Positions 4,897 through 36,600 of a stretch of 64,000 bases of DNA are shown one piece after another (the stretch's first letter is position 1; each line of letters starts with the position of its first letter). The notes beneath the pieces are model-generated. The model had not been told where the DNA came from and did no database searches. It worked only from the letters and a program-made list of their open reading frames with translations. Made by a program: the position numbers and the translations under genes. Where the stretch lies: IMG/VR virus record IMGVR_UViG_3300017917_001176, positions 13,052 through 77,051 of that record. One strand, given 5' to 3'. Source of the stretch: a virus.

Positions 4897-5095
4897 TCCG
4901 GCACCCAACGGATACGATTACAATCAAGATTATTACGACAGCATGGATGCCTGGGCACAAGAACACTGTGCCAGTTATGTAGGATACATTGTGGTTGATG
5001 TTGCAGATGTCAGCGCCTTTTGGGACGAAATTGGCGAATACGAATTTCGTGACCCAAAAGATGCAATGGCTTTTACATTAAAATTTAAACACTGA
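4871..5095 (+). CDS. phage hypothetical protein
   Basis: 74 aa; C-terminal [14 protein letters not shown]. Confidence 0.6.
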
Positions 5096-5390
5096 AGCTG
5101 CTGCCGCAACCACAGGTTGTTTGTGCGTTGGGATTCTTGATTACAAACTGACTGCCCATATCGTTTTCTTCGTAGTCTAACACTGCACCAGTTAGGTACT
5201 GCATGCTCATGCTGTCTACTAGAACTTTGCCTAATTCAAAGTCATCTTCTTCTTTGGCTTGTTCAAAATCAAACACATAGTTGAATCCTGAACATCCGCC
5301 GCCTTGAATTGATATACGCAGATAAGGTTCTGCATTTTCTGCAAGGCCCATGTCAATTTCTTTGACTGCTGTTTCTGTAATTGTGATCAT
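5085..5390 (-). CDS. erpA: A-type Fe-S cluster carrier, ErpA-like
   Basis: GGGCSGF.Y.F and [14 protein letters not shown]; true start MITITE at 5390 overlaps the iscU stop (ATGA). Confidence 0.88.
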
Positions 5391-5764
5391 TGGTGTTTTC
5401 CTTTGTAGTCTGCAATTGCTGCTTTGATTGCGTCTTCTGCTAGAATGCTGCAATGTATCTTAACAGGAGGCAATGCCAGTTCTTCTGCAATAACAGAATT
5501 TTTAATGGTCTGCGCCTCATCCAAGGACATGCCTTTTAGCATTTCTGTTACCAGGCTCGAACTGGCAATGGCACTACCGCAACCGTATGTTTTAAACTTT
5601 GCATCTTCAATGATACCTGCATCGTTTACTTTAATTTGTAGTTTCATTACGTCACCACACGCAGGCGCACCTACCATGCCTGTGCCAATGCTGTCGTCAA
5701 TGTCGAACTTGCCCACGTTACGTGGATTTTCATAATGGTCAATCACTTGATTTGAATATGCCAT
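5387..5764 (-). CDS. iscU: Fe-S cluster scaffold IscU
   Basis: [27 protein letters not shown] and LPPVKIHC. Confidence 0.96.
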
Positions 5765-5766
5765 AG

Positions 5767-6087
5767 TTATACCCTAAAACTTTCTCCGCATCCGCAGCGG
5801 TCACGTTCATTTGGATTCTTAAAATCAAATCCTTCATTAAGTCCCTGGCGTATGTAATCCATTTCCAGACCCGACACGTATGCTAGACTCTTAGGGTCAA
5901 CAAAAATATTCACGTCGTATGATGTGTATTGTACATCCTCTGGATCGGGGGTGTCAACGTATTCGAGTTTGTATGCAAGTCCGCTACAGCCTGTGGTGCG
6001 AACTCCTACCCTAATGCCCACACCGTGTCCGCGATGGGCGATAGTTTTCATGACCTTTTCGGCCGCTTTTTGAGTTAATGTTATCAT
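5767..6087 (-). CDS. iscA: Fe-S cluster assembly protein IscA
   Basis: TTGCSGLAY.LEYVD, GLNEGF.F.NPN and CGCGESF. Confidence 0.93.
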   Translation of the reverse strand: MITLTQKAAEKVMKTIAHRGHGVGIRVGVRTTGCSGLAYKLEYVDTPDPEDVQYTSYDVNIFVDPKSLAYVSGLEMDYIRQGLNEGFDFKNPNERDRCGCGESFRV

Positions 6088-8772: not shown

Positions 8773-9236
8773 ACTGCGTTATCCCATCCTAATCGAATAA
8801 ATCGTACACCAGGTTTTTGTAATCCTTCTTTGACTGCGCGAACAAAACTGCTGCAATCTTCTGGTTCATACAGTGGTATGTCTAGCGCATCCATAAGTGC
8901 GGCATCATCGGCAACAAGGTGGCCACGCCCACAGATGCTATAACAGCCATTATGTCCAGCATTAACAAAAATAATACTGCCCGTGTTTTCGGCCCAACCT
9001 TTGATATTAAGTTTAATTTGCTCATATGCTTTGTAGATAACGAATCCTGCGACTCCGTATATAATTACTTTCTTTCCTTGACTAGCCAGCCCTGCTGCAA
9101 TGTTAACCATGTTGGGTTCTTGCACACCGCAATTGATTTGTTTATAATCACCGTCGGTCCACTTCCACATGTCTCCATGCAAGAAATAAACTTCGCCCGG
9201 GTAGCGTGAAAGAAACTTATGTAAGGTTGCTCGCAT
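8757..9236 (-). CDS. split transketolase, pyrimidine-binding subunit (no C-terminal domain)
   Basis: NCGVQEPNMVNIAAGLA and AYEQIK; only 159 aa. Confidence 0.8.
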   Translation of the reverse strand: MRATLHKFLSRYPGEVYFLHGDMWKWTDGDYKQINCGVQEPNMVNIAAGLASQGKKVIIYGVAGFVIYKAYEQIKLNIKGWAENTGSIIFVNAGHNGCYSICGRGHLVADDAALMDALDIPLYEPEDCSSFVRAVKEGLQKPGVRFIRLGWDNAVWKSQ

Positions 9237-12939: not shown

Positions 12940-13762
12940 CCATTATACTACGTTTGCTTTGCGCAGTCAAGCTACGATTAATGAATCGCATGAGCTCACC
13001 GTAATATTGATTGTCATCCATTTCACGACCAGTAATTTTAAAACTGGTCACACCCATATCTATTAGACGTCGCATGTTATCGGGTTTGATGTCCATGCAA
13101 TCGTGCTTGCTGTCTTTACTATAGTCAAATTTTGGAATCCAGCATTCTTCAACTTCTCTTGAATAAGGGTTGCCCGCTGTGTTTTCGTCTGCAATGGCTT
13201 TGAAGTGCTGATCCCAATACTTGCACCCATACACACAGGTATCGTTTAACATCACTTCCCATTTGGTTGCATCCAGTTCGTTGCTGCGAGGATCAAAGAT
13301 ATGTTCAAATCTTGGCACTATCCAATCGTAGTCCTGCTCCAACTGTTTGTAAAATGCAATGTCACTGTCCTGTAGTGGAATGTTCAACAGGCCCATGCCT
13401 GTGATACTGTAGATCAAATCATAGTCGGGATAGTGAGTGCGCACATACTTGCGCAGATCTTCATTCACAATGATCAGTGCGTTGCCCTTGCGATGAAACT
13501 TTTCCAACAGTTGATTGCCCAGTTCATCTGTTAGGTCTATCTTGTAGTTGCTCATGGTCAGTGCAATGCTTATGCCCTTGCTGTAGTAGAACTCCATGAG
13601 TCCTTCGTTGTAGTACACACTGCGATTGATACGGCCACCATTCCAACGGCATTTGTTTATGCCATCGTACACAACCAGCTGAGTGTTGTCCACCAATTGG
13701 TTGCTCAAAAACTTTATGATTGGCACGCTCTTACTAAAGGCACCAGCGATTAAATATCTCAT
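12923..13762 (-). CDS. peptidase U32-like (Fe-S hydroxylase-type) protein
   Basis: EVMLNDTCVYGC...H...C cluster and SFKITGR (cf. U32 SLKIEGR); start revised to ATG 13762. Confidence 0.65.
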   Translation of the reverse strand: MRYLIAGAFSKSVPIIKFLSNQLVDNTQLVVYDGINKCRWNGGRINRSVYYNEGLMEFYYSKGISIALTMSNYKIDLTDELGNQLLEKFHRKGNALIIVNEDLRKYVRTHYPDYDLIYSITGMGLLNIPLQDSDIAFYKQLEQDYDWIVPRFEHIFDPRSNELDATKWEVMLNDTCVYGCKYWDQHFKAIADENTAGNPYSREVEECWIPKFDYSKDSKHDCMDIKPDNMRRLIDMGVTSFKITGREMDDNQYYGELMRFINRSLTAQSKRSIMDDHER

Positions 13763-14697
13763 TTTAAATTTTCTTTGGGAAAGTTGAACATATTCTCGCA
13801 TTTGCAGCAGTCCAACGGGCAAACTTCTTGTTGTATAAAATCCACTGCCTTGGGCATCAGCTTCCCAACCTTGCGTCCTGTACAGATATTTTCAATCTCT
13901 CCGTTTACACTGATTTCGTAAAACAACGGGGTACAGGTAAATCCTTTGAACCGATCGAATCGTTTCTCATAGATTTGAAAATCATTTAGATACTCTACTG
14001 TGCCATCGTTGAATTCATATTTATGAGTTAAATTGATGTGACTGGCTCTTTGCGACATGTCAGCAAATGACCAATCCAACTCAGACTGAAACAGCTCGTA
14101 AAATTCTTTGGAGTAGGCCGATGTCCAATGGCTAGTGTCTGACAGAATCTGCAAACTATAATTGACTCCATTTTCTTTCAGTAGTTTAATTCGTTCCAAC
14201 GTAACGGGCCAATGTTTGCTTTCGTCGCTCATGATCAGCGTGACAGAAAACTTTATGTACTGTGAGTCTTTGAGTGACAATGCTTTGTCTATAAACTTGT
14301 TGTCTACAAAGTCAGGGTGCAAGGATGCTGCAATTTCAACACCCGTTAACTCTGGCCTATCTAATTTTTTGTAATAGTTTAAACTGCGAGATAAGTTTGT
14401 AGCAACCAGTACACCTTTACAGTGCGGAATACTTTTTACTTCTAACAGTATGTCTGCCATCTTAGGATGCAGTGTAGGTTCACCGCCTACCATGTCTATT
14501 TCAAAATCTGTGTCTAATTTTTTCAATCTAGCCAGAGTGAACTTGTACTGGCTCATGCTGTCTTCGTGTTGCCAATTCTCTGTCATCTTGCCAGCACTGG
14601 CACAATAGTTACAGCTGAAGTTACACCAATTGGTTAGATACCAACTGAAGTGTATGGTTTTGTATTCAGGATTGCCTGCACGAATTATTGAGCGCAT
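13759..14697 (-). CDS. radical SAM enzyme (paralogue family A)
   Basis: CNFSCNYC, GGEPTLHP, TNLSR, SLHP, C-terminal C..C..CPLDCCKC; AAGGAGG RBS before ATG 14697. Confidence 0.9.
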   Translation of the reverse strand: MRSIIRAGNPEYKTIHFSWYLTNWCNFSCNYCASAGKMTENWQHEDSMSQYKFTLARLKKLDTDFEIDMVGGEPTLHPKMADILLEVKSIPHCKGVLVATNLSRSLNYYKKLDRPELTGVEIAASLHPDFVDNKFIDKALSLKDSQYIKFSVTLIMSDESKHWPVTLERIKLLKENGVNYSLQILSDTSHWTSAYSKEFYELFQSELDWSFADMSQRASHINLTHKYEFNDGTVEYLNDFQIYEKRFDRFKGFTCTPLFYEISVNGEIENICTGRKVGKLMPKAVDFIQQEVCPLDCCKCENMFNFPKENLK

Positions 14698-15590
14698 GGT
14701 GCCTCCTTGTAAAAATTCAGCATGCTTTCGCACACACAACAATCTCTAGGACAGCTGACCTTGCGCAGCAGTTGTTCCTGTTTTAAAAACAAACCATTGA
14801 ATCTTTGTCCTGTGCAGGTGTTGGCCACAGTGCCATCGAAGTATATTTCAAAGAACTGCGGAGTACAGGTGTACCCAGTTAGTCTGTGTAGGTTTTGATT
14901 GTACACTTCCAGACTGCTCAACTGCTGTGGTCCGCTATCAAACTCATATGAGAATCTAGCATCTGCTGGTGTCTCAAACTGTTGAAACAAAGCAAAACAT
15001 TCTGGCGTGTAATCGGGTGTCCAGTCTGTGCTTTCGTGTAACCAATGCAGTCCGTAGCTGATGTTGCGACTGGACAATTGTTCAATCAATTCCAGCGTGA
15101 CAGGCCAGTGTGCTGGGTCATCTGATATGTTCACACTCACGCGAATATTTAGATGCTGCATGCGATTAATGGCATCAGCTTTTTCTATAAAGTCTTGATT
15201 GTAATATTCAGGATGAAAACTAGCAGTCACAGTCATGCGACTCAATGACGCTTGATCCAAGTCTGAAAAGTAACTTAGTGGTCTGGATAGATTGGTGAAC
15301 AATTCAATTCGTTGGCAAAGCTCAATGCTGCACAGTTCAGTTAGTATCTCTGTCAACTGCGGATGCAGTGTAGGCTCGCCGCCTAGCAGTTCAATTTCAA
15401 AGGGTGCGTCAAACTTTTTCAGTTTGGTCAGTGTTAGTTTGTAGTTGCTTGAGCTTTGTTCTTTTTGCCATTTGTCTACCATGACCAATTGTTCATAGCA
15501 ATAGCTGCACTGGTAATTGCACCAATTGGTCAAGGTCCATGCAAAATGGAACTTGTTGTATTCAGGATTGCCTGCACGTAGTATCTGCAT
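14685..15590 (-). CDS. radical SAM enzyme (paralogue family A)
   Basis: CNYQCSYC, GGEPTLHP, TNLSR, SFHP, CPRDCCVC; start taken at MQILRAG. Confidence 0.9.
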   Translation of the reverse strand: MQILRAGNPEYNKFHFAWTLTNWCNYQCSYCYEQLVMVDKWQKEQSSSNYKLTLTKLKKFDAPFEIELLGGEPTLHPQLTEILTELCSIELCQRIELFTNLSRPLSYFSDLDQASLSRMTVTASFHPEYYNQDFIEKADAINRMQHLNIRVSVNISDDPAHWPVTLELIEQLSSRNISYGLHWLHESTDWTPDYTPECFALFQQFETPADARFSYEFDSGPQQLSSLEVYNQNLHRLTGYTCTPQFFEIYFDGTVANTCTGQRFNGLFLKQEQLLRKVSCPRDCCVCESMLNFYKEAPCAQ

Positions 15591-16345
15591 CACATCAAAA
15601 AGCACTTGTCATGGTTGCAAATACCATTGTGCTTTTCCCTATAGCAACAGTTGTACAGCTCTAAATTAGGACCATATAAAAAGTACTTGTCATTGTACAA
15701 ACATGGTTTGCCCCGCGGACTAAATTCTGGATCGTCCCAGAGCTCTGATCTATCTTTGCCCAATCGTTTGACTTCTTCAAAACGCACCAACTTTTGATAC
15801 GCAGGATCCTTGCGCATTTTATTGTACAACGCAGTAGACCAATTGCTCACTCCATCACCAAAGTCAGCGATAGGAGTCAGAAACACGTTCACATCAGGGT
15901 GTACCAACTCTTTGATTTTGAAATAGTAGATCAATGCTTCCTTGCCTGTGAACATAACATCAATGGTTCTTATGGTAGCTGTAACGCTGGACAGCACATC
16001 CATGAATTCTTCAACTGACACTTCAGTTGGATGCACACTGACCTGCAACAGGTACGGGTCTGTGATTGTTTTCATCACCCGAGCACTGTGCGCAGACAGG
16101 TTGGTTTGTATTACAAAAGGTATAGAAAACTCATTGAAGCATTGTATGATCCACTGAATGTCTGGATGAACAAATGGTTCGCCACCAAACACAAAAACTT
16201 CCACACCAGGGTATTGCTCTCCAAGGCCGCGCACAAAGTCACGCACCACATCACGATCCAGAACTGGATGTATGGTTTTATCTAGGTTCGTGCAATACAC
16301 ACATGAGTAATTGCACTTGAGTGTAATTTCCCATTCAACCTGCAT
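15590..16345 (-). CDS. radical SAM enzyme
   Basis: CNYSCVYC, GGEPFVHP, SVHP, C-terminal C..CC..C...C. Confidence 0.9.
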   Translation of the reverse strand: MQVEWEITLKCNYSCVYCTNLDKTIHPVLDRDVVRDFVRGLGEQYPGVEVFVFGGEPFVHPDIQWIIQCFNEFSIPFVIQTNLSAHSARVMKTITDPYLLQVSVHPTEVSVEEFMDVLSSVTATIRTIDVMFTGKEALIYYFKIKELVHPDVNVFLTPIADFGDGVSNWSTALYNKMRKDPAYQKLVRFEEVKRLGKDRSELWDDPEFSPRGKPCLYNDKYFLYGPNLELYNCCYREKHNGICNHDKCFLM

Positions 16346-17240
16346 CTTTTACCTTTAGCTGTTTGAGCAAGCCATCGCAGTTGCATGCCCGATGTGGACA
16401 TATCATTGGAACTGTTTTTGTAATGTTCTTAAAGAAGTCAGGTTGTTGCAATAGGTTAACGTGATTGCATTTATCTAAACAAAACTTAACCACGTTACCA
16501 TTGACATCAATTTCGTAATTGTTGTTATAGCAACTCCACCCTTGGAAATTGGTTAGTTTGTCACGGAACACTATGAAGTCATTGAACAACTGATCGTCGT
16601 ACACTAGATCCTTCTCATAGTGTTCAAGAAAAGCAAAGTATTCCCAGAAGTCCTTGCGATAGTTGAACAGTTTGCTGATACTGTTACCGTATAGAAAGTG
16701 CGGATGTATCTTGAGTCCATCTATACCCTCACAGATATCAAACATTTCTTTAATCAAAGGCCATAGCTTCTTATCATGATGCAACATGATGTTGACTTTG
16801 CACTGATACCCGCGACTGATCATTAACTTCATGTTGGCAATAAACCGTTCACGATTGGTACAGTCTGCAGGATGATAACTGAACAAAAAGGCCAACCCTG
16901 GATAGTCAGGATGATCTGTAAAATCTTTTTCTGCATTGGTTACCACGTACACACGATTGTATGTGGGCAACTGAGTTATCTGTTCCAGTATGTAATGATA
17001 GTATGGACCAAGAGTAGGCTCACCACCTAGCAGTCCTAGGTTAAAGCTCAGGCTACTGCGGCGCAAGGATTCCACAACACCATCAATGATTTCTTTGCTG
17101 CTCAACTTGCCCCATTCTTTACCGTATTCATTTCTAGCATAGCAGTAGGAACATTGCAGTTGACAAATGGTCAGGCTGTCCCAATGCACATTTATGTGAT
17201 CTGGGTTCTGCTGAATGTGATGTTGTCTACTGTAGTTCAT
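16335..17240 (-). CDS. radical SAM enzyme
   Basis: CQLQCSYC, GGEPT, SYHP, CPHRACNC; start taken at ATG 17240 (ATGA coupling). Confidence 0.9.
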   Translation of the reverse strand: MNYSRQHHIQQNPDHINVHWDSLTICQLQCSYCYARNEYGKEWGKLSSKEIIDGVVESLRRSSLSFNLGLLGGEPTLGPYYHYILEQITQLPTYNRVYVVTNAEKDFTDHPDYPGLAFLFSYHPADCTNRERFIANMKLMISRGYQCKVNIMLHHDKKLWPLIKEMFDICEGIDGLKIHPHFLYGNSISKLFNYRKDFWEYFAFLEHYEKDLVYDDQLFNDFIVFRDKLTNFQGWSCYNNNYEIDVNGNVVKFCLDKCNHVNLLQQPDFFKNITKTVPMICPHRACNCDGLLKQLKVKDAG

Positions 17241-18154
17241 AATTTCTTTTTTGGAAACTCTAATGTTTGTTTGCTCAAGCATACTTCACGTGGGCAGATT
17301 TCTTTTCTAACCAAATTGTTATCGCCCAAACTCAGTCCCACTTCTCTATTGGTACATAGATTAGTTATCACTCCTTCGCGGCTGATTGAGTAATAAACCG
17401 GAGTGCATTCATAACCCTGGAATTTATTCCAATGGTTTATTTCTATTTCGTGGTCTTTGAGCATGGCGTGGGTGCCATCTTCAAACTCCACTGGAATCTC
17501 AAAAGGATGATCTGTGTCATCAAAGTACTGCCCGAACCTCTCATGAAATTCTGATGTATAATTGGCAGTGAAGTTTTGATTGCTGATCAAGAGATTCAAA
17601 CGTGTTTTTACTTTTTTCTCCAGCAAACGCTCAATTACCAACTGTGTGCTATCCCAGGTGTCGGGTTGATCTTTAAGATTCAACTGTACCACAAACTCGC
17701 GACAGTGTTGATGCAGCTCAATGGCTTTTTCTAAAAACTTGTCCTTGTAGTACTCTGGATGATATGCTGCCATGATCAGCAACTTGTTTTCATTGAACTT
17801 GTTGAGCACGTTCAATGCTTCTACTTGTTTATAGAAGTCCACGCTGCGTGACAGGTTGGTCATCACTGCTATCTGTACACAGTTGTCTATAGCAGACATC
17901 TTGTTAACAATATCCAAGAACTGTGGGTGTAGTGTGGGCTCGCCACCGCTTAGGCACATCTGAAAGTTTCTTTGCACTGTGCCCAATCTAGCCAGGACCA
18001 TTTTGTAATCAGCATGTCTGGGCTGTGTGAAGTCATTGGTTACCACGTGCAGCACTGGACAATAGCTGCACTTGTAATTGCACCAGTCAGTCAGGTGCCA
18101 TGCAAATTCAATGCGTTGAAAGTTTGGATCGCCGCAGCTCTTAATTGGATTCAT
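17237..18154 (-). CDS. radical SAM enzyme (paralogue family A)
   Basis: CNYKCSYC, GGEPTLHP, TNLSR, AYHP, CPREVC. Confidence 0.9.
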   Translation of the reverse strand: MNPIKSCGDPNFQRIEFAWHLTDWCNYKCSYCPVLHVVTNDFTQPRHADYKMVLARLGTVQRNFQMCLSGGEPTLHPQFLDIVNKMSAIDNCVQIAVMTNLSRSVDFYKQVEALNVLNKFNENKLLIMAAYHPEYYKDKFLEKAIELHQHCREFVVQLNLKDQPDTWDSTQLVIERLLEKKVKTRLNLLISNQNFTANYTSEFHERFGQYFDDTDHPFEIPVEFEDGTHAMLKDHEIEINHWNKFQGYECTPVYYSISREGVITNLCTNREVGLSLGDNNLVRKEICPREVCLSKQTLEFPKKKL

Positions 18155-18800
18155 GTAAAAAGTCCATGGATGCTGTGGTGTTCACTGAGCTGTTGCTGTC
18201 CGGAAAGGATATGTTATCGCCACCGTCTGTGGTTTGAAAGTACAGTACCCGGTTAGTAGTGCGTATGAGTTTGCTACGTGCTGCTGAGTGCATGACCAGA
18301 GCAATGTCGTTGTGAATGTTGTTGTCCATTGGAAATGCGAAATCCACAATAGTACTCTTTTTAAATATATGCTGCCCCAATTGCAAACGCTCCAGATCCA
18401 GTTGCAGACAAAACTCTCGCGCATCAGTCCACAATTGCTCTTGGTGCATGCTCAAACATTTGACCCAATTTGGCTGTTGTGCTGGCATGTAATTGCCAAC
18501 TATGAGATCTGCGTTCAGCTCTAGCTTGTTAAAGAAGTCTGCAGACACATAGTCATCATCTTCAAGATAGTACACATACTCGCCTGTGGCCTGTTGCAAC
18601 AAAAATTCATATATCATGCTCAAGTTGTCAAACTTCTGATAATGGTACTGTACCCGGGCATGAGGTATTTCCACAATGTCGTTGCTGTCATTGTTCACAA
18701 TAACTTCAACGTCAGTAGGCAATTGTCTTAGCACACTGTTTAGACAACGTTGGAATAGATCAGGACGCTGATGCGTCAATATCAAAATGCTCAGTTTCAT
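18141..18800 (-). CDS. glycosyltransferase family 2
   Basis: LSILILT..R, ATGEYVYYLEDDD (DxD motif). Confidence 0.85.
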   Translation of the reverse strand: MKLSILILTHQRPDLFQRCLNSVLRQLPTDVEVIVNNDSNDIVEIPHARVQYHYQKFDNLSMIYEFLLQQATGEYVYYLEDDDYVSADFFNKLELNADLIVGNYMPAQQPNWVKCLSMHQEQLWTDAREFCLQLDLERLQLGQHIFKKSTIVDFAFPMDNNIHNDIALVMHSAARSKLIRTTNRVLYFQTTDGGDNISFPDSNSSVNTTASMDFLHESN

Positions 18801-19873
18801 TTGAAGTGATTCTTTCTATAGAAAGTCACTTGGGTGATCTTTTCGCCTTCTTCTGGAAACACTGGAACATTCTTTAGTTCGCGCTCTACACCATCGCAGA
18901 TGTAAAAATGTTTGCATTTCAAGCAGTCCACTTCTTTGCGATAGAATCGTACCCGGTGGTCCGCACAGTGATCGTGTGCAAACTTTAACTTCTCTTCTGT
19001 TGTGTACTCACGGCTTACATCAATCTTGACGCCACGCTCGTCAATGTACATTTCCTTGTTCCAGTCATACAGGTCGTAGATGTGTTGGTATTGATCACAC
19101 ACATACTGTTCGTAACCTTTCATGTAGCAGTAAGGAACATAGCGCACATTGATCAACATGTTCTTGTTCAAGAGGTCAATGCACTTTTTGATGTTGTCTG
19201 TCATGTCCTTGTAGCTGACATTGTCTGTGTCAATCTCCACTTGGTCCCAGTAGTTCAAGGTAATAAAGTTAACTTCCAATGGAGCAATATCATTGATCAG
19301 TTGTGCGTACACATTGTCCAACTGAAAGTAATTCTTGTAATATACTGTGCAGTTGATCCGTACAATCATGCCCAGTTCCTGTGCATTCTTGATACCTTGT
19401 AGAATACGTTTGAAACTGCCTTTGCGATTGGTAATGGCATCATGTGTTTCTGCTGTGCCACCGTGTAGACTGAACAGCACTTCTTTGAGTCCATGTGCTT
19501 GTGATTCTCTCAGGAACTCTATGTTGGCAAATTTGCCGCCATGGCTCAAACAACTCACATGCTCAAATCGTTCGTTACAGTAGTCCAGTATTTCAAACCA
19601 GTCTGGACTCACACTGCTTTCACCGCCGCTGAGATCCACTTGTGTGATCCCGTATGCTTTTAAATAGTCTGCTCGTTGCTTGACCACTTCCACCGGTGTC
19701 TTTACATCCAGCTGATCACGATAGTAACAGAACTCACAATCATAGTTGCAAAAGGTTCCTGTGTCTAGCTTGGCTCGATTACAACGAGGAGTTTGGTAAT
19801 CAATTTCAATGCCGTGCGTACTCAACTCATTCAATGAGTTAGCATTAGCGTTGAGTACTATTGGCATTTTCAT
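18797..19873 (-). CDS. radical SAM enzyme with PYC and C-terminal CxxCx5C motif
   Basis: CNYDCEFC, SGGE, FSLHG..AETHD.IT, VPYC, CLKCKHFYICDG. Confidence 0.9.
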   Translation of the reverse strand: MKMPIVLNANANSLNELSTHGIEIDYQTPRCNRAKLDTGTFCNYDCEFCYYRDQLDVKTPVEVVKQRADYLKAYGITQVDLSGGESSVSPDWFEILDYCNERFEHVSCLSHGGKFANIEFLRESQAHGLKEVLFSLHGGTAETHDAITNRKGSFKRILQGIKNAQELGMIVRINCTVYYKNYFQLDNVYAQLINDIAPLEVNFITLNYWDQVEIDTDNVSYKDMTDNIKKCIDLLNKNMLINVRYVPYCYMKGYEQYVCDQYQHIYDLYDWNKEMYIDERGVKIDVSREYTTEEKLKFAHDHCADHRVRFYRKEVDCLKCKHFYICDGVERELKNVPVFPEEGEKITQVTFYRKNHFK

Positions 19874-21920: not shown

Positions 21921-22322
21921 TTATCTCCTTAGGTACTCTTCTACTATGCTATTTACGCCGGCTTGATCATTATGATCTGCCAGTCTCTGTAGTTTAGTAA
22001 TAATATCTTGGTACTCTTGCTTTTTGTGTTCAATCTTTTTCATATTGTCAGCAAGAGTAATATAACGCTCTAGGTCAATGATCAGACTTTCGTCGCCCGA
22101 TTCGATAACTTTGATATAGCATTCTTCTCTGTTGTTATCGGTAATAAAAATACCTTTGCTGGCAAACTTGTTGTTCAATTGCATAAACGAAACAAAATCA
22201 AGCAAAGTAAAAATTAACAGCTCATCACCCATGATTCCACGAGCTTTGACTTTGACCGCTACTGCTGCTTTGCCTGCATAGGTGGTGCCATCAATTCCTT
22301 CTATTTCTTTTACTTCTTTCAT
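21921..22322 (-). CDS. small accessory protein downstream of the Cys-repeat protein
   Basis: 133-aa helical ORF, 1 nt from the neighbouring gene. Confidence 0.65.
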   Translation of the reverse strand: MKEVKEIEGIDGTTYAGKAAVAVKVKARGIMGDELLIFTLLDFVSFMQLNNKFASKGIFITDNNREECYIKVIESGDESLIIDLERYITLADNMKKIEHKKQEYQDIITKLQRLADHNDQAGVNSIVEEYLRR

Positions 22323-22323
22323 G

Positions 22324-22974
22324 TTATCCTTCGATCATGTTCACTGGTAGTTGAGAATAGTCAACAAAGTAATACCCACCGCGGTCGGTACCAAGTGCTG
22401 ACTCATATTTTGTTCCAAGTAGTTCTTGTGCAATTACACCAATATACTTTTTGTCTTTGTTCCACTTGTAGGTATATGAATACACATTCAAGTCACCTTC
22501 TGTACGCAGGAACTCAACATTGTCTTTTAGACGTTGGTCACTGTAGTTACAGTTACAGGTACAAGCATAGTTACAGTTACAGGTACAGTAGTTACAGTTA
22601 CAGGTACAGTAGTTACAGTTACACAAACACACTGCGCCAGCAGTTTTAACTTTCTGAATCATTGCATTAATATTAGCAGCGTACACAATACCATCTACGG
22701 CAACGTTGGTAAATCCTGCTGCGTATGGATAACTGCCAGTGGACAAATTTCCCTGCATGAGATTCAAATGTCTAGCAAGGATGTTTCCATCTGTGTACAC
22801 TGTTTGTACTGCTCTTGCGGCATTACCTCTGCGAGCAAGTTCAGAGTTTACAATTCCGGCCAACTCTGCCATCTTAGATGCTAGTACCCTGCTGTCAACT
22901 GCTGCATTAGCTGTTGTGTAGGTTACTGCATCGTTGATTGCAGTTCCACCTTGTTGTTCTGGTCCAATTGGCAT
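22324..22974 (-). CDS. Cys-repeat protein with C-terminal S74-type intramolecular chaperone; candidate radical SAM substrate / fibre protein
   Basis: CLCNCNYCTCNCNYCTCNCNYACTCNCNY immediately followed by SDQRLK..V, VYSYTYK, GVIAQEL and VDYSQL. Confidence 0.85.
   Translation of the reverse strand: MPIGPEQQGGTAINDAVTYTTANAAVDSRVLASKMAELAGIVNSELARRGNAARAVQTVYTDGNILARHLNLMQGNLSTGSYPYAAGFTNVAVDGIVYAANINAMIQKVKTAGAVCLCNCNYCTCNCNYCTCNCNYACTCNCNYSDQRLKDNVEFLRTEGDLNVYSYTYKWNKDKKYIGVIAQELLGTKYESALGTDRGGYYFVDYSQLPVNMIEG
22543..22629 (-). repeat. coding tandem repeat, 4 x 21 nt (one 3-nt insertion)
   Basis: Plus-strand unit gtagttacagttacaggtaca encodes CTCNCNY on the minus strand. Confidence 0.95.
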
Positions 22975-22986
22975 TTCTATTTCCTT

Positions 22987-23370
22987 TTAAATTTCTTTTT
23001 TAAGAAAATCTAAACTGTCAGCTGCTTTGGTCTGCGCTAAAAACTTTTCGTAGTCGTCTAGATCTGATGTAATAAATTCCAAGGTGGCTGCGTCTGGCAC
23101 TTTAGTACTCAAAATTTCAGTTTCGGTCTGCAAGGAATTGGTTAGAATATGACTGACCAATTGCTCTAGGTCGTATCCCAGTGCCTTGGACACAAAGTCA
23201 ACCTGCTGTGTGAGATCCACTGTTTCGCGTTTGCCAGCTTCTGCAACTGCTTGAATGGTATTCACTGTGATGCCAAATCCTTCTAGTAGCAGCGCACCAA
23301 CAGTTGGATCCTCATCGCTGATCTCTTTGATAAGTGCATAAATTTGTTCGATTTTTTCAACGATAGTCAT
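22987..23370 (-). CDS. small acidic accessory protein
   Basis: 127-aa ORF between the Cys-repeat gene and a radical SAM gene. Confidence 0.65.
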   Translation of the reverse strand: MTIVEKIEQIYALIKEISDEDPTVGALLLEGFGITVNTIQAVAEAGKRETVDLTQQVDFVSKALGYDLEQLVSHILTNSLQTETEILSTKVPDAATLEFITSDLDDYEKFLAQTKAADSLDFLKKEI

Positions 23371-24266
23371 GTTAGTTCCTTGTCTTTAAAGTCATGAAAT
23401 TTTGGAGAGTTTTCGTAATTCTCGTACGTTGTGACATTACCTTCGTCCGTATAATACGTTTTGAGCTCTTTTCTTTCACCACAACCACTGCACATGTCGC
23501 AGAAAAGCTCGCAAACAGGCGTGGATATAGTCTTATTTATCCAGTCCTGACGCAGCAGCTTTTTTGCATCTTGCAGCTTTTGCATGTCTTCGGGCTGTAG
23601 TGTGCTCCAGGCCACGCTGGTGATCAGGCGCCCTGGGCGGAATGTTTTAATAACACGAGTCATGTCTTCATACAGGTGATTTATGTTGCCCTGCTGTATG
23701 GTATATCTAATGCGGAATTTTACTCCGTTTTTTAACAGATTGCGAAACACCTGTATCATCATAGGAGTGGACTCTGTTCCAGCATGTGTTACTCTGTCCT
23801 GATTACCAATACCGTCAAAACTAACATCAATGCTCAACAGTCCACGCTGGTAGAAAAACGTGTTTTTAACTTCGTCAATAAACCGCTGACTTAGGAATTT
23901 GATGCCATTGGTTTCCAAATTAAAATGCACATTGTTCTTTTTATTGTATGCGTATTCCATTGCATAGCACACGTTCTCCCATTCCAATGTGGCTTCGCCG
24001 CCAAACAGTACAATCAATGTTTGGTTATCTGGATTTTCTCTAGCCAGTATCGAATCAATGGAGTCTCGTATGTTTTGCTTTGATAGTATCTGCGGAGGCC
24101 GACCTGGCAAATCCTCGTAGCAGTAGGTACACGCCAAATTGCACTTGTTGGTAAAGTATAGAACATTAACGCCAGATCCTGCGGGTGTAGGAAGATCTGT
24201 TTTATCGCCTACATAAAAGTTTAGGCCAGGGTTCGCACCAACAAAGGATCCAACAATCTGACTCAT
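23367..24266 (-). CDS. radical SAM enzyme, peptide-maturase-like, short C-terminal Cys cluster
   Basis: CNLACTYC, FGGE, TNG, SFDG, CELFCDMCSGC. Confidence 0.9.
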   Translation of the reverse strand: MSQIVGSFVGANPGLNFYVGDKTDLPTPAGSGVNVLYFTNKCNLACTYCYEDLPGRPPQILSKQNIRDSIDSILARENPDNQTLIVLFGGEATLEWENVCYAMEYAYNKKNNVHFNLETNGIKFLSQRFIDEVKNTFFYQRGLLSIDVSFDGIGNQDRVTHAGTESTPMMIQVFRNLLKNGVKFRIRYTIQQGNINHLYEDMTRVIKTFRPGRLITSVAWSTLQPEDMQKLQDAKKLLRQDWINKTISTPVCELFCDMCSGCGERKELKTYYTDEGNVTTYENYENSPKFHDFKDKELT

Positions 24267-24583
24267 TGTATAATCATCTTATGTTTGTTTTTGTATCGCT
24301 CTTCTTCACGCATGGCTTTTGCTTGTTTGATTATATGACTCATGTTTTCTAAAAAACGCACATAGTCATATTTGTAGTCAAACAGATGTCCACGCTCGTC
24401 GAGTTCAAAGCCAACATACTGACTGTCTACCTTGGCTTTACCTTTACGTGCTTCATCAATCTGCGCTTGTAACTCTTCTGTGGTTAACACTCGATTGCTT
24501 GCATGCTCAACAGGCTGCATCTCAACCTTGATAGGTACAGCAATAATACTCTTAAAAGATTTTTTTGGTTTTAGTTCCGACAT
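24263..24583 (-). CDS. small accessory protein
   Basis: 106-aa ORF coupled between two radical SAM genes. Confidence 0.6.
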   Translation of the reverse strand: MSELKPKKSFKSIIAVPIKVEMQPVEHASNRVLTTEELQAQIDEARKGKAKVDSQYVGFELDERGHLFDYKYDYVRFLENMSHIIKQAKAMREEERYKNKHKMIIQ

Positions 24584-25695
24584 TCCACACCCTCGTTTTC
24601 TACACCAACGTTTTCAATGTAATGCAATATCAAGTCTTGGAACAATGGTTCATCGCGGCATTCTTCAACCACACGCATGGCCTGTTCATAATAGATATGA
24701 AACAGTTCGCAGATACTGTCCAATGGCTTGTTATCATTCATAACCTGACTATAGGTACAGCCTGCATTACATACCTGCTTGAGATCGCAAGGCTCGCACT
24801 TGTCATAGCTGCCTGGATTGAAAATCTTTTGATAGTACTTGAAGTCGTATGCTTCGTCCATCTTCATGATCTTCTTGCTGGCAAAACGAGCACAGGGATA
24901 AAACTCTCCTGAACTCATTAGCACACCGCCATTGGTTCCTGCGAAGCAACCAAACTGTCGCTTGCCTTTGACCAAGCCGTATAGAATATCTAGTATGGCC
25001 AATCTTAAAAATCCAACACTGCACGGAACGCCTTCTTTGATCTTCTTGATCCAGAATGTTGCTAGACGTTCGCATTCATAGCGGAATTCAACAATGTCTT
25101 CTCTGGTCCATACGTCATCTCTTACGATAGAGAAGTCAGGATGCTCGATGCCCCAGCTTAATAGGAACTCAAAGTTCTCTACCATGTCCTTGGTGTTGCC
25201 AGGCCAAATCATCACCTTGCATCCGTTGGTAAGACCAGTGATCAATTCCTTCTTGTAATTGTACATGTCCAGAATACCGTCAAACAGTTCACCTGTTTCT
25301 GGATTGGTATTTTCCAACAGCGGCAACAAAGGTCGTGTTTCGTTAGAGCTCATACCGTCAAAGCTCCAACTAACACCCACACCGTTTTCTCTAAGATAAG
25401 TGGCTTTTTCCTCATCAATCATGGTGAGGTTGGTAATGATGTTAATACCCTTACACTTTTTGTCTGCTCTGAGTTTAGGTACTGCATGTTTGATCAAATC
25501 AAAGTTCAACAGCGGCTCGCCACCAAAGAAACTCACGTGATACTCTGCATCACCTGATCGTAACATCAGCTTGTGCAGATCCACTAGACCTTTGTCAAAT
25601 ATTTCGTTGGTCATCCAAGTAGGACGGTTGGCCACATAACAATACGGGCAACCTAAATTACATTTTTCTGTTACGCTTACTTCTAGAGTGAACAT
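24571..25695 (-). CDS. radical SAM/SPASM peptide-maturase-like enzyme
   Basis: CNLGCPYC, FFGGEPLL, SFDG; SPASM CFAG..G.FYPC..CEPC....CNAGC...C. Confidence 0.92.
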   Translation of the reverse strand: MFTLEVSVTEKCNLGCPYCYVANRPTWMTNEIFDKGLVDLHKLMLRSGDAEYHVSFFGGEPLLNFDLIKHAVPKLRADKKCKGINIITNLTMIDEEKATYLRENGVGVSWSFDGMSSNETRPLLPLLENTNPETGELFDGILDMYNYKKELITGLTNGCKVMIWPGNTKDMVENFEFLLSWGIEHPDFSIVRDDVWTREDIVEFRYECERLATFWIKKIKEGVPCSVGFLRLAILDILYGLVKGKRQFGCFAGTNGGVLMSSGEFYPCARFASKKIMKMDEAYDFKYYQKIFNPGSYDKCEPCDLKQVCNAGCTYSQVMNDNKPLDSICELFHIYYEQAMRVVEECRDEPLFQDLILHYIENVGVENEGVECRN

Positions 25696-26789
25696 TGCTC
25701 TGCCTCAAATTTAATCACTGGCTTTTTATAACTCTTGAGTGCAGTACGCAGTGCATGATGAACGATCTCATTGCTTTTGAATACTTTGCAAACCTGCCAG
25801 TTACTGGTGTGGTCGCTCCACTTCTCAAGGTATGTATCTTTCTCAGACTTTTCATATGTGGCTGCATTACATTTCATACAGAACTGACTGTCGCAGCTAA
25901 TACAGTCCAGCGGCTGATTCTTCAGCGCATCTCTGTACATGTCTGTTTTTTCTTTAATCAGTGCATCTAGGTCTGGTGCCTTAAAGATGTTGCCAATCAC
26001 GTGTGCATGAGATTCTTTGTACATACAACCGTGGCAAGGACTGATATCGCCATTCAAGTCTACGCTGATATAGTTGATACCAGATGCACACAAGGCACGA
26101 CTTTGTGTGAACCAACCAAACTTTTCCGGAGGCAGTTTGTTTACATAGATGTACTTGGCAATCTTGGTCAAGCCTTCTTTAAGCACTTCCAGGCGCGGCA
26201 TGAACTCTTCTTCAGTTAACTGTGAGTACATGTCGGGTGTTGGAAAGTAGTTTTCGTCTAGTTCAATTACATCAAGAAACGCTTCGTAGATCAAATGAAA
26301 GTGTTCTGCTGTGAGTACGCTTTTCATGCGCACGTTCAAGCCTGCTTGCTTGGCAGCAAGGTAGTTTGATTTAACCAATGTAGAACTTGGATTGCCTGCC
26401 TTGTCAATACGAGTAATATCGTTTACTGGCTTGCCATCATAGCTGACCTGAATATTCAAACGATTTGGCATAGCTTCGTGCAAACGCACTAGATCCTTAA
26501 GATACTTTTTCAAGTATACGCCATTGGTGTAAAAGAAAAAGCTGTAGTTGGTGTCGTCTTTGTATTTCTCCATTACGCCACGGCAGAAGTCATAGTTAAC
26601 AAATGGCTCGCCGCCCCAGAAGTAAATATCCTTCTTGGGATCGCTGATTTTGTTCATGAACTCTTCGATGTTTTCCAAGGTTACTTCTGTGTTTTCCTCG
26701 TATGCTGTGCTCAGACCGCACTCAAATCCTTCTGAACAGTAGGTGCAAGCTAGATTGCAAGTACTGGTTACATTAATATCAATTACCAT
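25683..26789 (-). CDS. radical SAM/SPASM peptide-maturase-like enzyme
   Basis: CNLACTYC, WGGEP, TNG, SYDG; CASG..GDISPCHGC..CISC...CMKC...C. Confidence 0.92.
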   Translation of the reverse strand: MVIDINVTSTCNLACTYCSEGFECGLSTAYEENTEVTLENIEEFMNKISDPKKDIYFWGGEPFVNYDFCRGVMEKYKDDTNYSFFFYTNGVYLKKYLKDLVRLHEAMPNRLNIQVSYDGKPVNDITRIDKAGNPSSTLVKSNYLAAKQAGLNVRMKSVLTAEHFHLIYEAFLDVIELDENYFPTPDMYSQLTEEEFMPRLEVLKEGLTKIAKYIYVNKLPPEKFGWFTQSRALCASGINYISVDLNGDISPCHGCMYKESHAHVIGNIFKAPDLDALIKEKTDMYRDALKNQPLDCISCDSQFCMKCNAATYEKSEKDTYLEKWSDHTSNWQVCKVFKSNEIVHHALRTALKSYKKPVIKFEAEQCSL

Positions 26790-27516
26790 TTCTATACCCT
26801 TTGTTAAGTTCTAATACGGTGTCCAACAATGCTAGTTTGTATTTATGGGTTAAAGCCTGCGTGTCTTTGGGCAAGCAAGGGCCGCCAAATCCTCGCTGGC
26901 CGTCTGGCCCAGGAACTGCAAAGTGATGTGAACCCATCCACGGATGCGTGGACAAAATCTCTGCCGCAGTAGCATAATCTGCACCCATATCCTGGGCAAC
27001 ATCATAAATGGAATTCATGTATGTTACTTTGAGCGCATAGAATGTATTCATTGTGTATTTTATAAGAGATGCCGTGGGAATGTCAACCAAATAACAGTTT
27101 GATGTGTCCACAGTTGATTCTCTAGCATACAGATCCAGCAGCTCTTGCCCACGCCGGCCGCCAATGATCAGGTATTCTGGATTAACAAAATCCTCTAGAG
27201 AAGTGCTGCGAGTTAAAAACTCTGGGTTGTACAGCACATCAAACCCTGCGAGATGCTCTGGCAGCACTGTGCTTTTGACCACCACTAGACCTGTGTAGTT
27301 GGAGTCTTTGATTTCTTGTAAAACTGATTTGAGCAGTGCGTAGTCTGTGCCATCCGAGGGTGTAGGAACGCACACAAAGATTGCATCCAGCTCCATTTTG
27401 CAAAGGTGCTTGACGCTTACTGTGTTATATTTAGGGTCTGAGTAAAATACTTGAGTTTTGGAAAAGCCGTGTTTGACGGCTCTTCCAACCATGCCGTAGC
27501 CAATAATTCCGATCAT
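26779..27516 (-). CDS. ugd: UDP-glucose/GDP-mannose 6-dehydrogenase (short form)
   Basis: GYGMVG, CVPTP, KST, NPEFL, KY..N.F.A.K, GFGGPCLPKD. Confidence 0.88.
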   Translation of the reverse strand: MIGIIGYGMVGRAVKHGFSKTQVFYSDPKYNTVSVKHLCKMELDAIFVCVPTPSDGTDYALLKSVLQEIKDSNYTGLVVVKSTVLPEHLAGFDVLYNPEFLTRSTSLEDFVNPEYLIIGGRRGQELLDLYARESTVDTSNCYLVDIPTASLIKYTMNTFYALKVTYMNSIYDVAQDMGADYATAAEILSTHPWMGSHHFAVPGPDGQRGFGGPCLPKDTQALTHKYKLALLDTVLELNKGYRNGN

Positions 27517-33669: not shown

Positions 33670-36600
33670 CTAGGGTCTTTCAAGCCAGATAGTACCTTGT
33701 GGTACACTGGAGATTATTGTGCTTTGATACGTTGCAGTATTTGCATTACCAGAGAAGCCATTGTTGACTTCAAGGTCTTGTGTAATACTCAACACCGTAT
33801 CACGAGTGATAATTTGTTCAGCACTTGCATCAGTAATTATGCTGCCCACAGGGTGAGCTAACGGAATACTGGTTCTTGCAGCACCACGTCTGATATCAGT
33901 CAGTACATTGCGTCCATAATCAATACCAAAGTAATTGATCTTTTCTGCATTGATCCAAATAGATCCAGGCTGGTTCTGAGAAGCATTTGGCTCTGGCAGC
34001 TTGGCCACATCGTCGACTGCAACTTCTTCTGAATCGTAACTGAGTTCGCTGGTCAGTATCACTGTGTTAGCAGCTGGCAAACGATAATACACTGTTGGCA
34101 ATTTGTAATCTGTGAATGCTTTGTAAGCAATCACATTACCGTAGTCAACATTACCATTTACAACATTGGCCGTGAACACGTTCATTTGCAGACTATCAAT
34201 CACTTGTCCAGGTACCAGTTCTTCTGGTGCATGGCTGCTGAATGTGTCAATGTACTTGCCGCCGTTGATGGTAATATCTTCAGGGCGTGTGCCTAGTTCG
34301 TTATCAGTGTAAACGCTGGTGATCTGTGTATCCAGGCTCAGAATGTCTGTTGCTGTTTCTGTATACGGTTGTCCAATTACTCGTGCGCCTGGATAACTGG
34401 TACCTGGAACTAGATCTGGAATATCCTTTGCCAGATGATCCAGTACACCACCAATGGTATAAGACTTGGTGCTGGTAATTGCCACACCACCTAGTATGCC
34501 CAGTGTAGTGTTAGCTTCCAATGTGTACCCTGCACCCAGTGTGGCAGTATTTGCAAACGCCAGTGTGTAGGTATCCTTGTTCAAGAACTGTGTGGTTCTC
34601 AATTGCAGTTTGGTACCAGTGGTGTCAAAGAATGTTACCAATGCACCAGCTGGAATATTTGCTGTGAACGGTGTGTTCAGTTGCACTGTGGTTGTGTTCA
34701 CACTCACGCTGTTGTAGTCAATGTTAACATCTTTACCACTGCTTCGTGCATACTGCCATGTAAAGTTTGCAAAGCGACCAACTTGTTTAACTCTTGCACC
34801 AGTTGGCATGCCTGTACCTGAAATGGTCCAGTTGCCTAATACTTTGGTATAATTGTCTACATAGACAATGTTGTCGCCTTTGCTTGCAGCTCTACTGGTT
34901 ACCAACTGTATGCTTGCACTGTTTGGTCCAGTGAATGTTAGTGTTGTTCCAGATGGAATATCATCAACAAATCCGTAACTGAATGACACACGTTGATTAA
35001 CGCCTGCAGAAACTGTGGCTGTTGCAAATGCAATGGCAATTGACCACAGTGTGGTTTCTGCATTGTAACTGACTCCTGTTACCAAACTATCGTCTGGTAG
35101 CAAGGATGCAGTGACTGTCATGCCTGCAAATACTTCGCCTGCTAGGTCTGTGGATGGAATCAGCACGGTCAACGATGTTGCATCTGTTACTGCGTCCCAG
35201 TCAGCTGATGGAGTTCTTGTACCTGCAGACAACACAGGATTAACTGCGCCCAGCTCAATGTAAGCTTCACTTTGTACGCCCGGGTAACCCCAGATGATTG
35301 TACTTTCGTTGCCTACAACCACAAACTTTTCACCGTCCCAGGTTACGTCTGAGAAGTTGATAGTCTTAACTGCGGCAGGACTCAGTGGGCTGATAAAATT
35401 ATCAGCGTTGAATGCTCTGAAGTTTTTAAACACTTCAATACCGTAGTTAACCACAGTTTTACCAATAGTGTCACTGCCTAGTTCTGCTGCGCCTGATCTG
35501 AGTTGTACTGGACTATCTAACTTGTTCCAGATCAGTGTACCAGCTGAACCAACTGCCACCAACCAACGATCTGTTTCGCCACTGAGTGCAATAGCATTGA
35601 TCTGTTGTCCACTTACACCATCGCCTTGTCCAATTACATCAATTGGGGCTTTCATTTCAATCCATGGGTAAGCACTGTCTCCAGCTTTGCCTGCATCGTA
35701 GTTGTAGCCTTTGGCATAACCCAACAGCGCATCTTCTAATCTAGCATAGCTGGTAATAAAGAAGTTACCGTTGTTGCCTGCTGCAATTACAAAACCTTGT
35801 TGCAAGCGATTGTTGCTGGTACCACTGGTTGTAAAGTATCCTGAGTCTTGCAGATCCACTGCATAGGTTGTTCCGTTGTTGTCAGTTAGGTCGCCAAATG
35901 ATTGAGAGAACAATGTCAGGAACTGTATTGGAGTTCCATAAATTGTAGGCTGTGGTTTCGCACTGTACCAACCTTGATCCAGATCCAATGAAGTATCATA
36001 CGGATTCATCAGTATGTTGCTACCGTTACCTGCTGCAATCACGTAGTTGCCTCTGGTGCCAGTTACTTCGGCCACTGCTGTAAAGTCAATTGCCTGACTT
36101 GCATTCAACAGTGTACTACCAGAAGTGTTGTCAATGGTTGGTGAGAACTGATATTCAGTTACAACTTCTTTTGACCAATCCACTGCATTATCACTGGTGA
36201 GCAGTGTGGCTTGATTACCAACTGCAATCCAAGTGGTTCCATTGAACAAACAAGCATCGCGAAGATTAATTTGGTTCTCTGAAATAAATGCAACTACCCA
36301 GTTTGTGCTGTTCTTGCTCAGTGCGATCAGTCCGCGATTACCAACAGCAATGTATTGATATTCGTGTGTTGCTGGAACAACACCGCTGTGTTTTACTGCG
36401 TTCCACTCATTGCCCTGCGAGCTAACTGCGTCATTGGTATTACTGTCATCCAAACGATTGGTATCTGGACTGCTGTACAATGTAGCAATATCTGGAGTAC
36501 CAGGTTGATTGTATGCAGCCACACGGTCAATTGCATTGTCAATGTCTGAACCACGTAATTTTTGTACTACAGTTTCATCGTCAAAAATATTCAAGTTCAG

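Follow-up and report, generated by a model that had tools for sequence, protein, structure and literature searches.

In Methanococcus voltae, the radical S-adenosylmethionine (SAM) enzyme CrpC (TIGR04463), a SPASM protein with seven auxiliary cysteines, is encoded beside CrpA, a full-size 28.8-kDa Cys-repeat protein in which ranthionine has been found by mass spectrometry (MS) (Dieter et al. 2026, PMC13692751). The CrpA motif C-X-X-Q/D was shown to receive the ranthionine links, and the seven-Cys arrangement of CrpC has been interpreted as keeping one iron of auxiliary cluster I open for a substrate Cys (PMC13692751). The described enzyme NxxcB tolerates Asn, Gln, or Asp as the acceptor. Among phages, the Campylobacter phages CP220 and CPt10 were reported to have 11 to 12 radical SAM genes and a 21-bp intragenic repeat in CPT_0180/CPt10_1891, two features that were not connected to each other in that report (Timms et al. 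2010, PMC2853527). Here we discuss a 64,000-nucleotide stretch of DNA (the window) from a 77-kb IMG/VR phage contig (record IMGVR_UViG_3300017917_001176, positions 13,052 to 77,051; CheckV completeness of the contig, 17%), in which three radical SAM genes, A, B, and C, lie upstream of the gene for a 216-residue Cys-repeat protein.

On balance, we favor reading the trio as a virus-encoded protein-maturation cassette with the adjacent 216-residue fiber-type protein as its substrate. The functional tie of the A/B pair to the Cys-repeat protein is well supported by comparison of sequences across phages: the pairing recurs in more than 60 phage loci, more than would be expected by chance, and the enzymes probably act on the virus's own structural protein. 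By analogy with described enzymes, the most likely chemistry is the stapling of Cys residues through thioether bonds. In the literature that we searched, no paper was found that describes this cassette, or chemistry of the type known from ribosomally synthesized and posttranslationally modified peptides (RiPPs) in a structural protein of any virus.

The radical SAM trio

An earlier note on this DNA had placed three maturase-type radical SAM genes at 23367-26789, upstream of the Cys-repeat gene, and the three open reading frames (ORFs) are found there on the minus strand. They belong to a minus-strand run whose order is dehydrogenase-like gene, A, B, p106, C, p127, Cys-repeat gene, and p133, as listed here (RRE, RiPP recognition element).

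26779..27516, minus strand: UDP-glucose/GDP-mannose dehydrogenase-like protein, truncated, 245 residues (Pfam UDPG_MGDP_dh central and N-terminal domains)
25683..26789, minus strand: radical SAM enzyme A, 368 residues, radical SAM/SPASM, without RRE (PF04055, conserved Cys)
24571..25695, minus strand: radical SAM enzyme B, 374 residues, radical SAM/SPASM, without RRE (PF04055, conserved Cys)
24263..24583, minus strand: p106, small conserved protein of 106 residues between B and C
23367..24266, minus strand: radical SAM enzyme C, 299 residues, with one four-Cys auxiliary motif (PF04055)
22987..23370, minus strand: p127, small acidic protein of helical character, encoded directly upstream of the substrate gene
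22324..22974, minus strand: Cys-repeat fiber-type protein, 216 residues, the presumed substrate (Pfam Peptidase_S74)
22543..22629, minus strand: the repeat within that protein, CLCNCNY CTCNCNY CTCNCNY A CTCNCNY, residues 116 to 144 (21-bp tandem DNA repeat)
21921..22322, minus strand: p133, conserved protein whose gene comes after the substrate gene in nearly all loci

Gene overlaps in this run are 4 to 13 nt (11 nt between the dehydrogenase-like gene, the first of the run, and A), and the genes therefore look translationally coupled. The window contains ten PF04055 genes in all, of which the trio is a subset; A, B, and C score 42 to 48 bits pairwise and no more than 48 bits against the other seven.

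All three enzymes pass the Pfam Radical_SAM (PF04055) cutoff of 29.5 bits, with 52.6 bits for A, 44.9 for B, and 47.7 for C. The CxxxCxxC motif occupies residues 11 to 18 in A (C11/15/18), 12 to 19 in B (C12/16/19), and 42 to 49 in C (C42/46/49), and its Cys residues are kept in 92 to 100% of homologs, conservation of these and of the auxiliary Cys being judged from alignments of 22 to 26 homologs. For the SPASM domain we looked for the pattern C-x(9-17)-G-x4-C ... C-x2-C-x5-C-x3-C ... C, which stands for two auxiliary 4Fe-4S clusters. Both A (C234, C252, C296, C299, C304, C307, and C334) and B (C250, C268, C300, C303, C309, C313, and C329, including a canonical Cx2Cx5Cx3C) have the seven conserved Cys. 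C has only C252-x3-C256-x2-C259-x2-C262, kept in 95% of 22 homologs; it does not show the seven-Cys motif, and its four tail Cys suffice for at most one auxiliary cluster. The description of the trio as two full SPASM enzymes and one with a short CxxxCxxCxxC tail thus agrees with the conserved residues. With the Pfam SPASM model (PF13186, cutoff 21.5), A scores 25.7 bits at the DNA level and 21.4 bits on the protein, and B gives no match; B nevertheless aligns to CteB residues 102 to 430 with the GC..G(x4)C and Cx2Cx5Cx3C motifs in register.

The best PDB match of all three enzymes is CteB (5WGG; E value of 4e-12 for A), and the alignment always begins at about CteB residue 101, from which it follows that the N-terminal recognition part is absent. 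We take the first ~100 residues of CteB to be its RRE, and A, B, and C have no counterpart to it. A PqqD-like RRE of ~80 to 100 residues is not found in the three enzymes, since residue 11, 12, or 42 is already the first Cys of the CxxxCxxC motif, and the lack of an N-terminal recognition domain, which had been read from the letters alone, is thereby borne out.

Among NCBIfam models, PapB (NF047865) is the best for each enzyme (B, 125.7 bits; C, 74.1; A, 68.9), although none of them reaches its cutoff of 340 bits. The nif11-type, SCIFF, QhpD, and HxsB/C maturases come next, and the sulfatase maturase and MoaA models are lower. Scores against the SCIFF model TIGR03974 (CteB) are 73.6, 54.5, and 45.8 bits compared to a cutoff of 425, and the neighboring gene encodes the 216-residue protein rather than a SCIFF-type peptide; against QhpD (TIGR03906), they are 51 to 72 bits compared to 453, and against the CrpC model rSAM_vs_C_rich (TIGR04463), 24.1, 22.6, and 22.5 bits compared to 525. 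The model of the anaerobic sulfatase-maturating enzyme (anSME; TIGR03942) gives 54.9, 41.7, and 40.2 bits compared to 349, and there is neither a sulfatase gene nor a C/S-x-P/A-x-R motif in the neighboring protein. The comparison thus supports placing A, B, and C nearest to the thioether-forming RiPP maturases, yet as members of no described family. This is the affinity that had been proposed, with PapB and CteB as the best matches ahead of sulfatase maturases, MoaA, and cofactor enzymes.

Linkage of the enzymes to the repeat across phages

The repeat consists of heptads and ends at Tyr144, directly before Ser145 of the S74 domain; Tandem Repeats Finder gives its DNA a period of 21 with 3.7 copies and 91% matches. 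Heptad statistics were taken from 733 units in 151 distinct proteins, the Cys at positions 1, 3, and 5 being fixed by the search pattern. Position 2 is Thr in 79% of units, position 4 is Asn in 81% (Asp in 15%, Gln in 3%), position 6 is Asn in 95%, and position 7 is Tyr in 98%. The copy number ranges from 3 to 28, and 119 of the 151 proteins have four copies. Variant lineages have CTCNCNF or CPCNC[N/D]F, and more distant ones have hexads of the form CxCNx[D/V], so that C-x-C-N is the sole element common to all repeat types.

Linkage of the enzymes and the repeat was seen from both sides. A search with the repeat protein gave 27 viral loci, and all of those with enough flanking sequence have A-like and B-like genes directly upstream, most of them with C as well; this linkage persists where the enzymes are only 30 to 40% identical to A and B and where the order of the genes is shuffled. 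Searching from the enzyme side, with a profile made from B only, gave 78 phage loci, 64 of which have an adjacent Cys-rich CxC[N/D] repeat ORF. The other 14 comprise six contig ends or short contigs, three Campylobacter phages with the repeat protein elsewhere, locus L050, locus L087 (a variant missed by the pattern), and the three most distant loci, which are truly without a repeat protein. In the closely related L050 (A, 78%; B, 74%), all three radical SAM genes are intact, and of the substrate gene only an N-terminal fragment of 71 codons is left (L050:12665-12880). Only three matches to the DNA repeat pattern came from ~185,000 species genomes of prokaryotes, each in a contig of a metagenome-assembled genome, and the repeat is essentially confined to phages; of these three contigs, L041 has A/C-like radical SAM genes, and L042 and L043 encode long repeat proteins of the Campylobacter phage type.

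The dehydrogenase-like gene lies directly upstream of the radical SAM pair in near and distant loci (45 to 65% identity) and conservation within the module is highest for it, also at loci where the identity of A and B is down to 26 to 29% (L094 and L104-L110 included). Its product lacks the C-terminal UDP-binding domain and keeps the catalytic-Cys motif GFGGPCLPKD. In both heptad-type and hexad-type loci this gene can be 55 to 65% identical to the window copy, and at that level of identity in the flank, A and B are 69 to 88% and 72 to 87% identical in heptad loci but only 26 to 29% in hexad (CxCNxD) loci. Because they diverge together with the repeat type, A, B, and the repeat protein behave as one evolving unit apart from their flanks, and among the computational arguments for an action of A and B on the repeat, this codivergence is the strongest. 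Of the three enzymes, hexad-type relatives keep just the A-like and B-like ones, and the minimal module in distant loci is a radical SAM pair, a small protein, and the repeat protein, with no sugar genes.

The adjacency could instead reflect hitchhiking in a hypervariable tail fiber region, with radical SAM genes that have no functional tie to the repeat protein. Tail fiber neighborhoods of large phages do collect accessory genes, and the window has ten radical SAM genes of several kinds. However, the pairing persists at 26 to 40% enzyme identity, in shuffled order, and in freshwater, gut, and Campylobacter phages, and the enzymes codiverge with the repeat type. Hitchhiking already appears disfavored by the two-way co-occurrence, and we regard it as highly improbable.

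The giant ORF of the window and the fiber N-termini had pointed at first to a cyanophage; the nearest cultured relatives are Campylobacter phages. Other loci come from freshwater and gut phages. Phages of the CP220 group encode a 534-residue protein with six or seven CTC[D/N]CNY repeats, which as a tblastn query matched 15 phage records, and an A-like radical SAM enzyme (29% identity) encoded 3 kb from the repeat gene. Their B-like enzyme (37% identity), the nearest cultured relative of B, is encoded next to dehydrogenase-like and p133-like genes. Unlike the window, CP220 and CPt10 have these genes dispersed, and the repeat protein is larger and without an S74 domain. The homolog in phage IBB_35 has a calculated mass of 60,317 Da, and the published MS table of the IBB_35 virion lists “gene 3-9, hypothetical protein, 60,318”; the offset in gene numbering was confirmed on three neighboring genes. 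Since the masses match, at least the IBB_35 homolog is a protein of the phage particle.

The repeat protein and its proposed modification

The 216-residue protein is composed of an N-terminal domain (residues 12 to 119), the repeat (116 to 144), and an S74 chaperone (145 to 216), the last scoring 29.7 bits with Pfam Peptidase_S74 (PF13884) compared to a cutoff of 22. In the AlphaFold2 (AF2) model, the N-domain has three helices and a pLDDT score (predicted local distance difference test) of ~90, residues 120 to 143 have a pLDDT of 38, and the S74 domain (145 to 216) has a pLDDT of 95; the Cys heptads are thus disordered between two confident domains. S145, D146, R148, L149, and K150 are invariant among 95 homologs. 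In characterized S74 domains, such as those of endosialidase and T5 pb1, the chaperone is released by a Ser-Lys pair, with cleavage at the Ser of the pair. By analogy, self-cleavage is predicted at Ser145, and the repeat would become the C-terminal tip of the trimer.

There are 652 homologs of this protein at an E value of ≤0.001, none with a functional name. Pfam and NCBIfam searches of eight and seven repeat proteins, at an E value of ≤10, gave nothing beyond S74; Foldseek of the AF2 model against the PDB gave no match at an E value of ≤0.001; and tblastn of the 216-residue protein against phage records gave none, probably owing to the low-complexity filter. In the ESM Atlas the N-domain fold groups with viral clusters. 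For two of these, with a similar N-domain, the Atlas assigns PF27846 (“tSAM_targ_Cxxx_rpt”, Pfam 38.1) to some of the members, 58% of them in one cluster, and we take this as a lead only.

The substrate gene varies in several ways among relatives. In distant ones the S74 domain is split: the repeat protein ends in a 12-residue stub, SDxRLKxEIxYM, followed by a stop, and the next ORF (90 to 103 residues) encodes the remainder of the domain, ...IGVMAQD...Y.VDY..L (L013:9941-10845, L020:9836-10717, L024:9953-10827, L041:2165-3050, and L087:12308-13110). A trans-acting form of this “intramolecular” chaperone would be unusual. Elsewhere the gene is present as three or four tandem paralogs (L023:9956-12520, L047:12696-15260, and L007:9386-11443) with different N-domains and identical (CTCNCNY)x4 tails, mostly with only the 12-residue S74 stub. 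Distant substrates start with a second Cys/His/Thr-rich motif, MACxGH[T/S]N..C..H.., that is absent from the window's protein (L013, L017, L020, L027, L071, L084, L094, and L104, with up to five copies in L017 and L071); this N-terminal motif may be a second modification site or a metal site. The locus of a 28-heptad substrate (L022:1947-2628) has an acyl-carrier-protein-like ORF with a DSM motif and further ORFs between the radical SAM genes, which hints at additional tailoring.

In the N-domain, E45, R48, and R49 are nearly invariant, which makes this domain, judged by conservation, a candidate docking surface for the enzymes. The small proteins of the operon were also considered as partners. 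p106 has homologs in close loci, with short forms in L016 and L028, and its AF2 model (pLDDT of 61) has two helices and no RRE fold visible at this poor quality. Neither p106 nor p127 belongs to a Pfam or PHROG family, no PqqD family was found in either by Pfam, and p127 has no usable match in the ESM Atlas. In nearly all distant loci, a small acidic ORF comes after the B-like gene; its likeness to p127 was judged by eye only. Because it recurs at that place, the core may include a helper protein.

A mechanism can be proposed from these elements. The operon would be cotranslated, as the gene overlaps suggest, and would give a protein in which, according to the AF2 model, the folded N-domain and the S74 chaperone are joined by a flexible linker that contains the Cys heptads. 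A and B, having no RRE, may bind through the folded N-domain, the small partner proteins, or both. The 5'-deoxyadenosyl radical derived from SAM would then take a side-chain hydrogen from the Asn, Asp, or Gln at i+3, with the Cys thiolate bound to auxiliary cluster I, and the expected products would be Cys-S-Cβ thioether (ranthionine) rings in the registers C1-N4 and C3-N6. We assign this step to A and B by analogy with NxxcB, PapB, QhpD, and CrpC. More speculatively, C, with its single auxiliary cluster, might add a lineage-specific step, perhaps on the third Cys. Finally, S74 would drive trimerization and then cut itself off at Ser145, the cleavage being expected from the family, and the stapled repeats would form the C-terminal tip of the virion fiber.

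Thioethers are favored here because A and B have the seven-Cys SPASM pattern of CrpC, and because C-x-x-[N/D/Q], which the heptad provides twice per unit, resembles both the C-X-X-Q/D motif of CrpA and the acceptor tolerance of NxxcB. One enzyme per Cys register was considered and rejected as a firm claim, since C is absent in L013 and L020 despite their heptads. The suggestion in the earlier note that the three enzymes divide the work is unsupported in view of these two loci and of the hexad-type ones, and is best regarded as speculation.

The repeat protein might also be modified by some other chemistry, such as anSME-like formylglycine formation, an aromatic C-C cyclophane from Tyr/Phe7, epimerization, or interchain cross-links. 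anSME, which is likewise without an RRE, has a SPASM domain and whole proteins as its substrates, and the full length of its model aligns to B (54.9 bits). The models of the cyclophane-forming YhhB and AmcB also score, position 7 is always aromatic (Y or F), and three enzymes that are only 42 to 48 bits alike make more than one chemistry plausible. On the other hand, anSME has eight ligating Cys and the target C/S-x-P/A-x-R, a motif absent here, A and B have the seven-Cys pattern of CteB and CrpC, and anSME scores lower than each of the PapB, SCIFF, nif11, and QhpD models. What stays invariant in the repeat, moreover, is Cys and Asn, and not the aromatic residue alone. The Tyr cross-links that the earlier note had offered alongside thioethers fare unevenly: a link that depends on the Tyr hydroxyl is unlikely because position 7 is Phe in some lineages, and there may be an aromatic C-C link. 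As a whole, we consider such other chemistry rather improbable.

Several points weigh against the reading of the trio as a thioether-forming cassette for the repeat protein. All scores are far below the curated cutoffs, so the chemistry cannot be transferred from a family, and thioether formation is a prediction by analogy. No recognition element was found, the p106 model being poor and p127 being without a match. The heptad-type contigs L013 and L020 do not have C, nor does the core of the hexad-type loci, and in the Campylobacter phages the B-like gene is ~30 kb from the repeat gene. The operon holds, besides the trio, the dehydrogenase-like gene, a family 2 glycosyltransferase (GT2) gene, epimerase genes, and seven other radical SAM genes, so a nonprotein substrate is possible, and the CxCxC repeats might just as well serve a trimeric fiber as metal or disulfide sites.

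These last points combine into an alternative in which the Cys heptads are a structural metal or disulfide motif of the trimeric fiber tip, similar to the iron-binding HxH sites in the gp37 needle of T4, and the radical SAM enzymes act on another substrate, such as a glycan or sugar nucleotide that is produced through the nearby dehydrogenase-like, GT2, and epimerase genes and then decorates the fiber. The alternating C-x-C-x-C-x-Y fits a beta-strand with one Cys face, and AF2 cannot model the repeat as a monomer. The dehydrogenase-like gene is immediately upstream of A and better conserved across loci than the radical SAM genes, the GT2, epimerase, PIG-L, and transketolase-like genes are also present, and in Campylobacter phages the B-like gene adjoins the dehydrogenase-like gene and not the repeat gene. 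We nonetheless judge this alternative unlikely: A, B, and C are closer to peptide- and protein-modifying SPASM enzymes than to the sugar-acting BtrN or to MoaA, divergence follows the repeat type in A and B and not in the dehydrogenase-like gene, and the minimal module of distant loci has no sugar genes.

Genomic setting and comparison with described systems

The gene content of the window, with tail-fiber-type ORFs, a 6190-residue ORF, and a baseplate spike domain, fits a large T4-like myovirus. The 6190-residue protein is encoded by a single ORF (33670-52242) downstream of the tail fiber genes. Megablast of the region against phage records gave no match. The T4 late promoter TATAAATA has no match within the window, and neither sigma-70-like promoter sites (24, compared to a shuffled expectation of 28.9 ± 4.5) nor terminator-like sites (17, compared to 11.0 ± 3.7) are clearly above expectation.

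The p133 gene has tblastn matches in near and distant loci and belongs to PHROG 25260, of unknown function. p133-like proteins follow the substrate gene almost everywhere, the motif of the relatives being GYFITDxNREEKYLEIxETGD, and their identity drops along with substrate identity (58 to 71% compared to 30 to 42%). The CP220 homolog, gp015 (L001:4465-5163), is encoded next to the baseplate hub gene.

Another run of radical SAM genes is located at 11851-12939, 13759-14742, 14685-15605, 15590-16345, 16335-17282, and 17237-18154, within which R305, R306, and R327 are clear paralogs (179 to 271 bits). It is followed by the GT2 gene at 18141-18800 and by a further radical SAM gene at 18797-19873, for which AlbA/HxsC is the best model. 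The stretch from 6646 to 11138, downstream in the run on the same strand, encodes accessory enzymes, namely a PIG-L deacetylase, two epimerase/dehydratase-like proteins, a split transketolase-like pair, and a tryptophan-halogenase-like protein (219 bits). The window also includes the following iron-sulfur cassette.

5085..6087, minus strand: IscA-like, IscU, and IscA-like genes (Pfam Fe-S_biosyn, 60.5 and 68.2 bits; NifU_N, 173.3 bits)

This cassette is a likely Fe-S supply for the ten radical SAM enzymes and fits a high Fe-S demand.

More tentatively, and with somewhat less than even confidence, we propose that a widespread class of tailed phages treats a virion fiber like a RiPP, in that SPASM enzymes without an RRE recognize a folded domain and staple a Cys-Asn repeat with rows of thioethers, and that the resulting tip is exposed by S74 self-cleavage. 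If true, this would be RiPP-type chemistry in a structural protein of the phage particle and the first case of a virus structural protein cross-linked by enzymatic radical chemistry. It would add a new recognition mode for RRE-less SPASM enzymes to the field, increase the very few cases of radical SAM thioether formation on whole proteins (QhpC and CrpA), and provide RRE-independent cross-linking enzymes with a short, portable seven-residue motif. It could also explain the many radical SAM genes of Campylobacter phages and large aquatic phages, a question since 2010 (PMC2853527). The proposal is directly testable, since virions of cultured Campylobacter phages contain the repeat protein (IBB_35).

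Compared with described systems, B is like CteB (5WGG/5WHY; SCIFF, thermocellin) in aligning with it over the radical SAM core and the whole SPASM domain. CteB makes a Cys thioether to a non-alpha carbon; its substrate CteA is a 45-residue peptide, unlike the 216-residue protein here. PapB/PapA (freyrasin) and NxxcB/NxxcA share with the window repeated Cys-acceptor motifs, with Asp/Glu or Asn/Gln/Asp as acceptors of beta-thioethers, but their substrates are leader-containing peptides and their registers are CX3D and NxxC rather than CxxN. anSME is alike in that it is a SPASM enzyme without an RRE, with Cys in whole proteins as its target, and differs in its eight-Cys pattern from the seven-Cys A and B. 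QhpD, whose model TIGR03906 is among the top ones for the trio, makes several Cys-Asp/Glu thioethers in QhpC, a protein subunit and not an exported peptide, although the dehydrogenase operon context of QhpC is absent here. CrpC/CrpA resembles the window in the placement of seven-Cys SPASM enzymes (A and B) next to a Cys-repeat protein. CrpC has an N-terminal RRE that A, B, and C do not, and the window is further set apart by its phage setting, its three enzymes, its seven-residue repeat, and its S74 self-cleaving chaperone.

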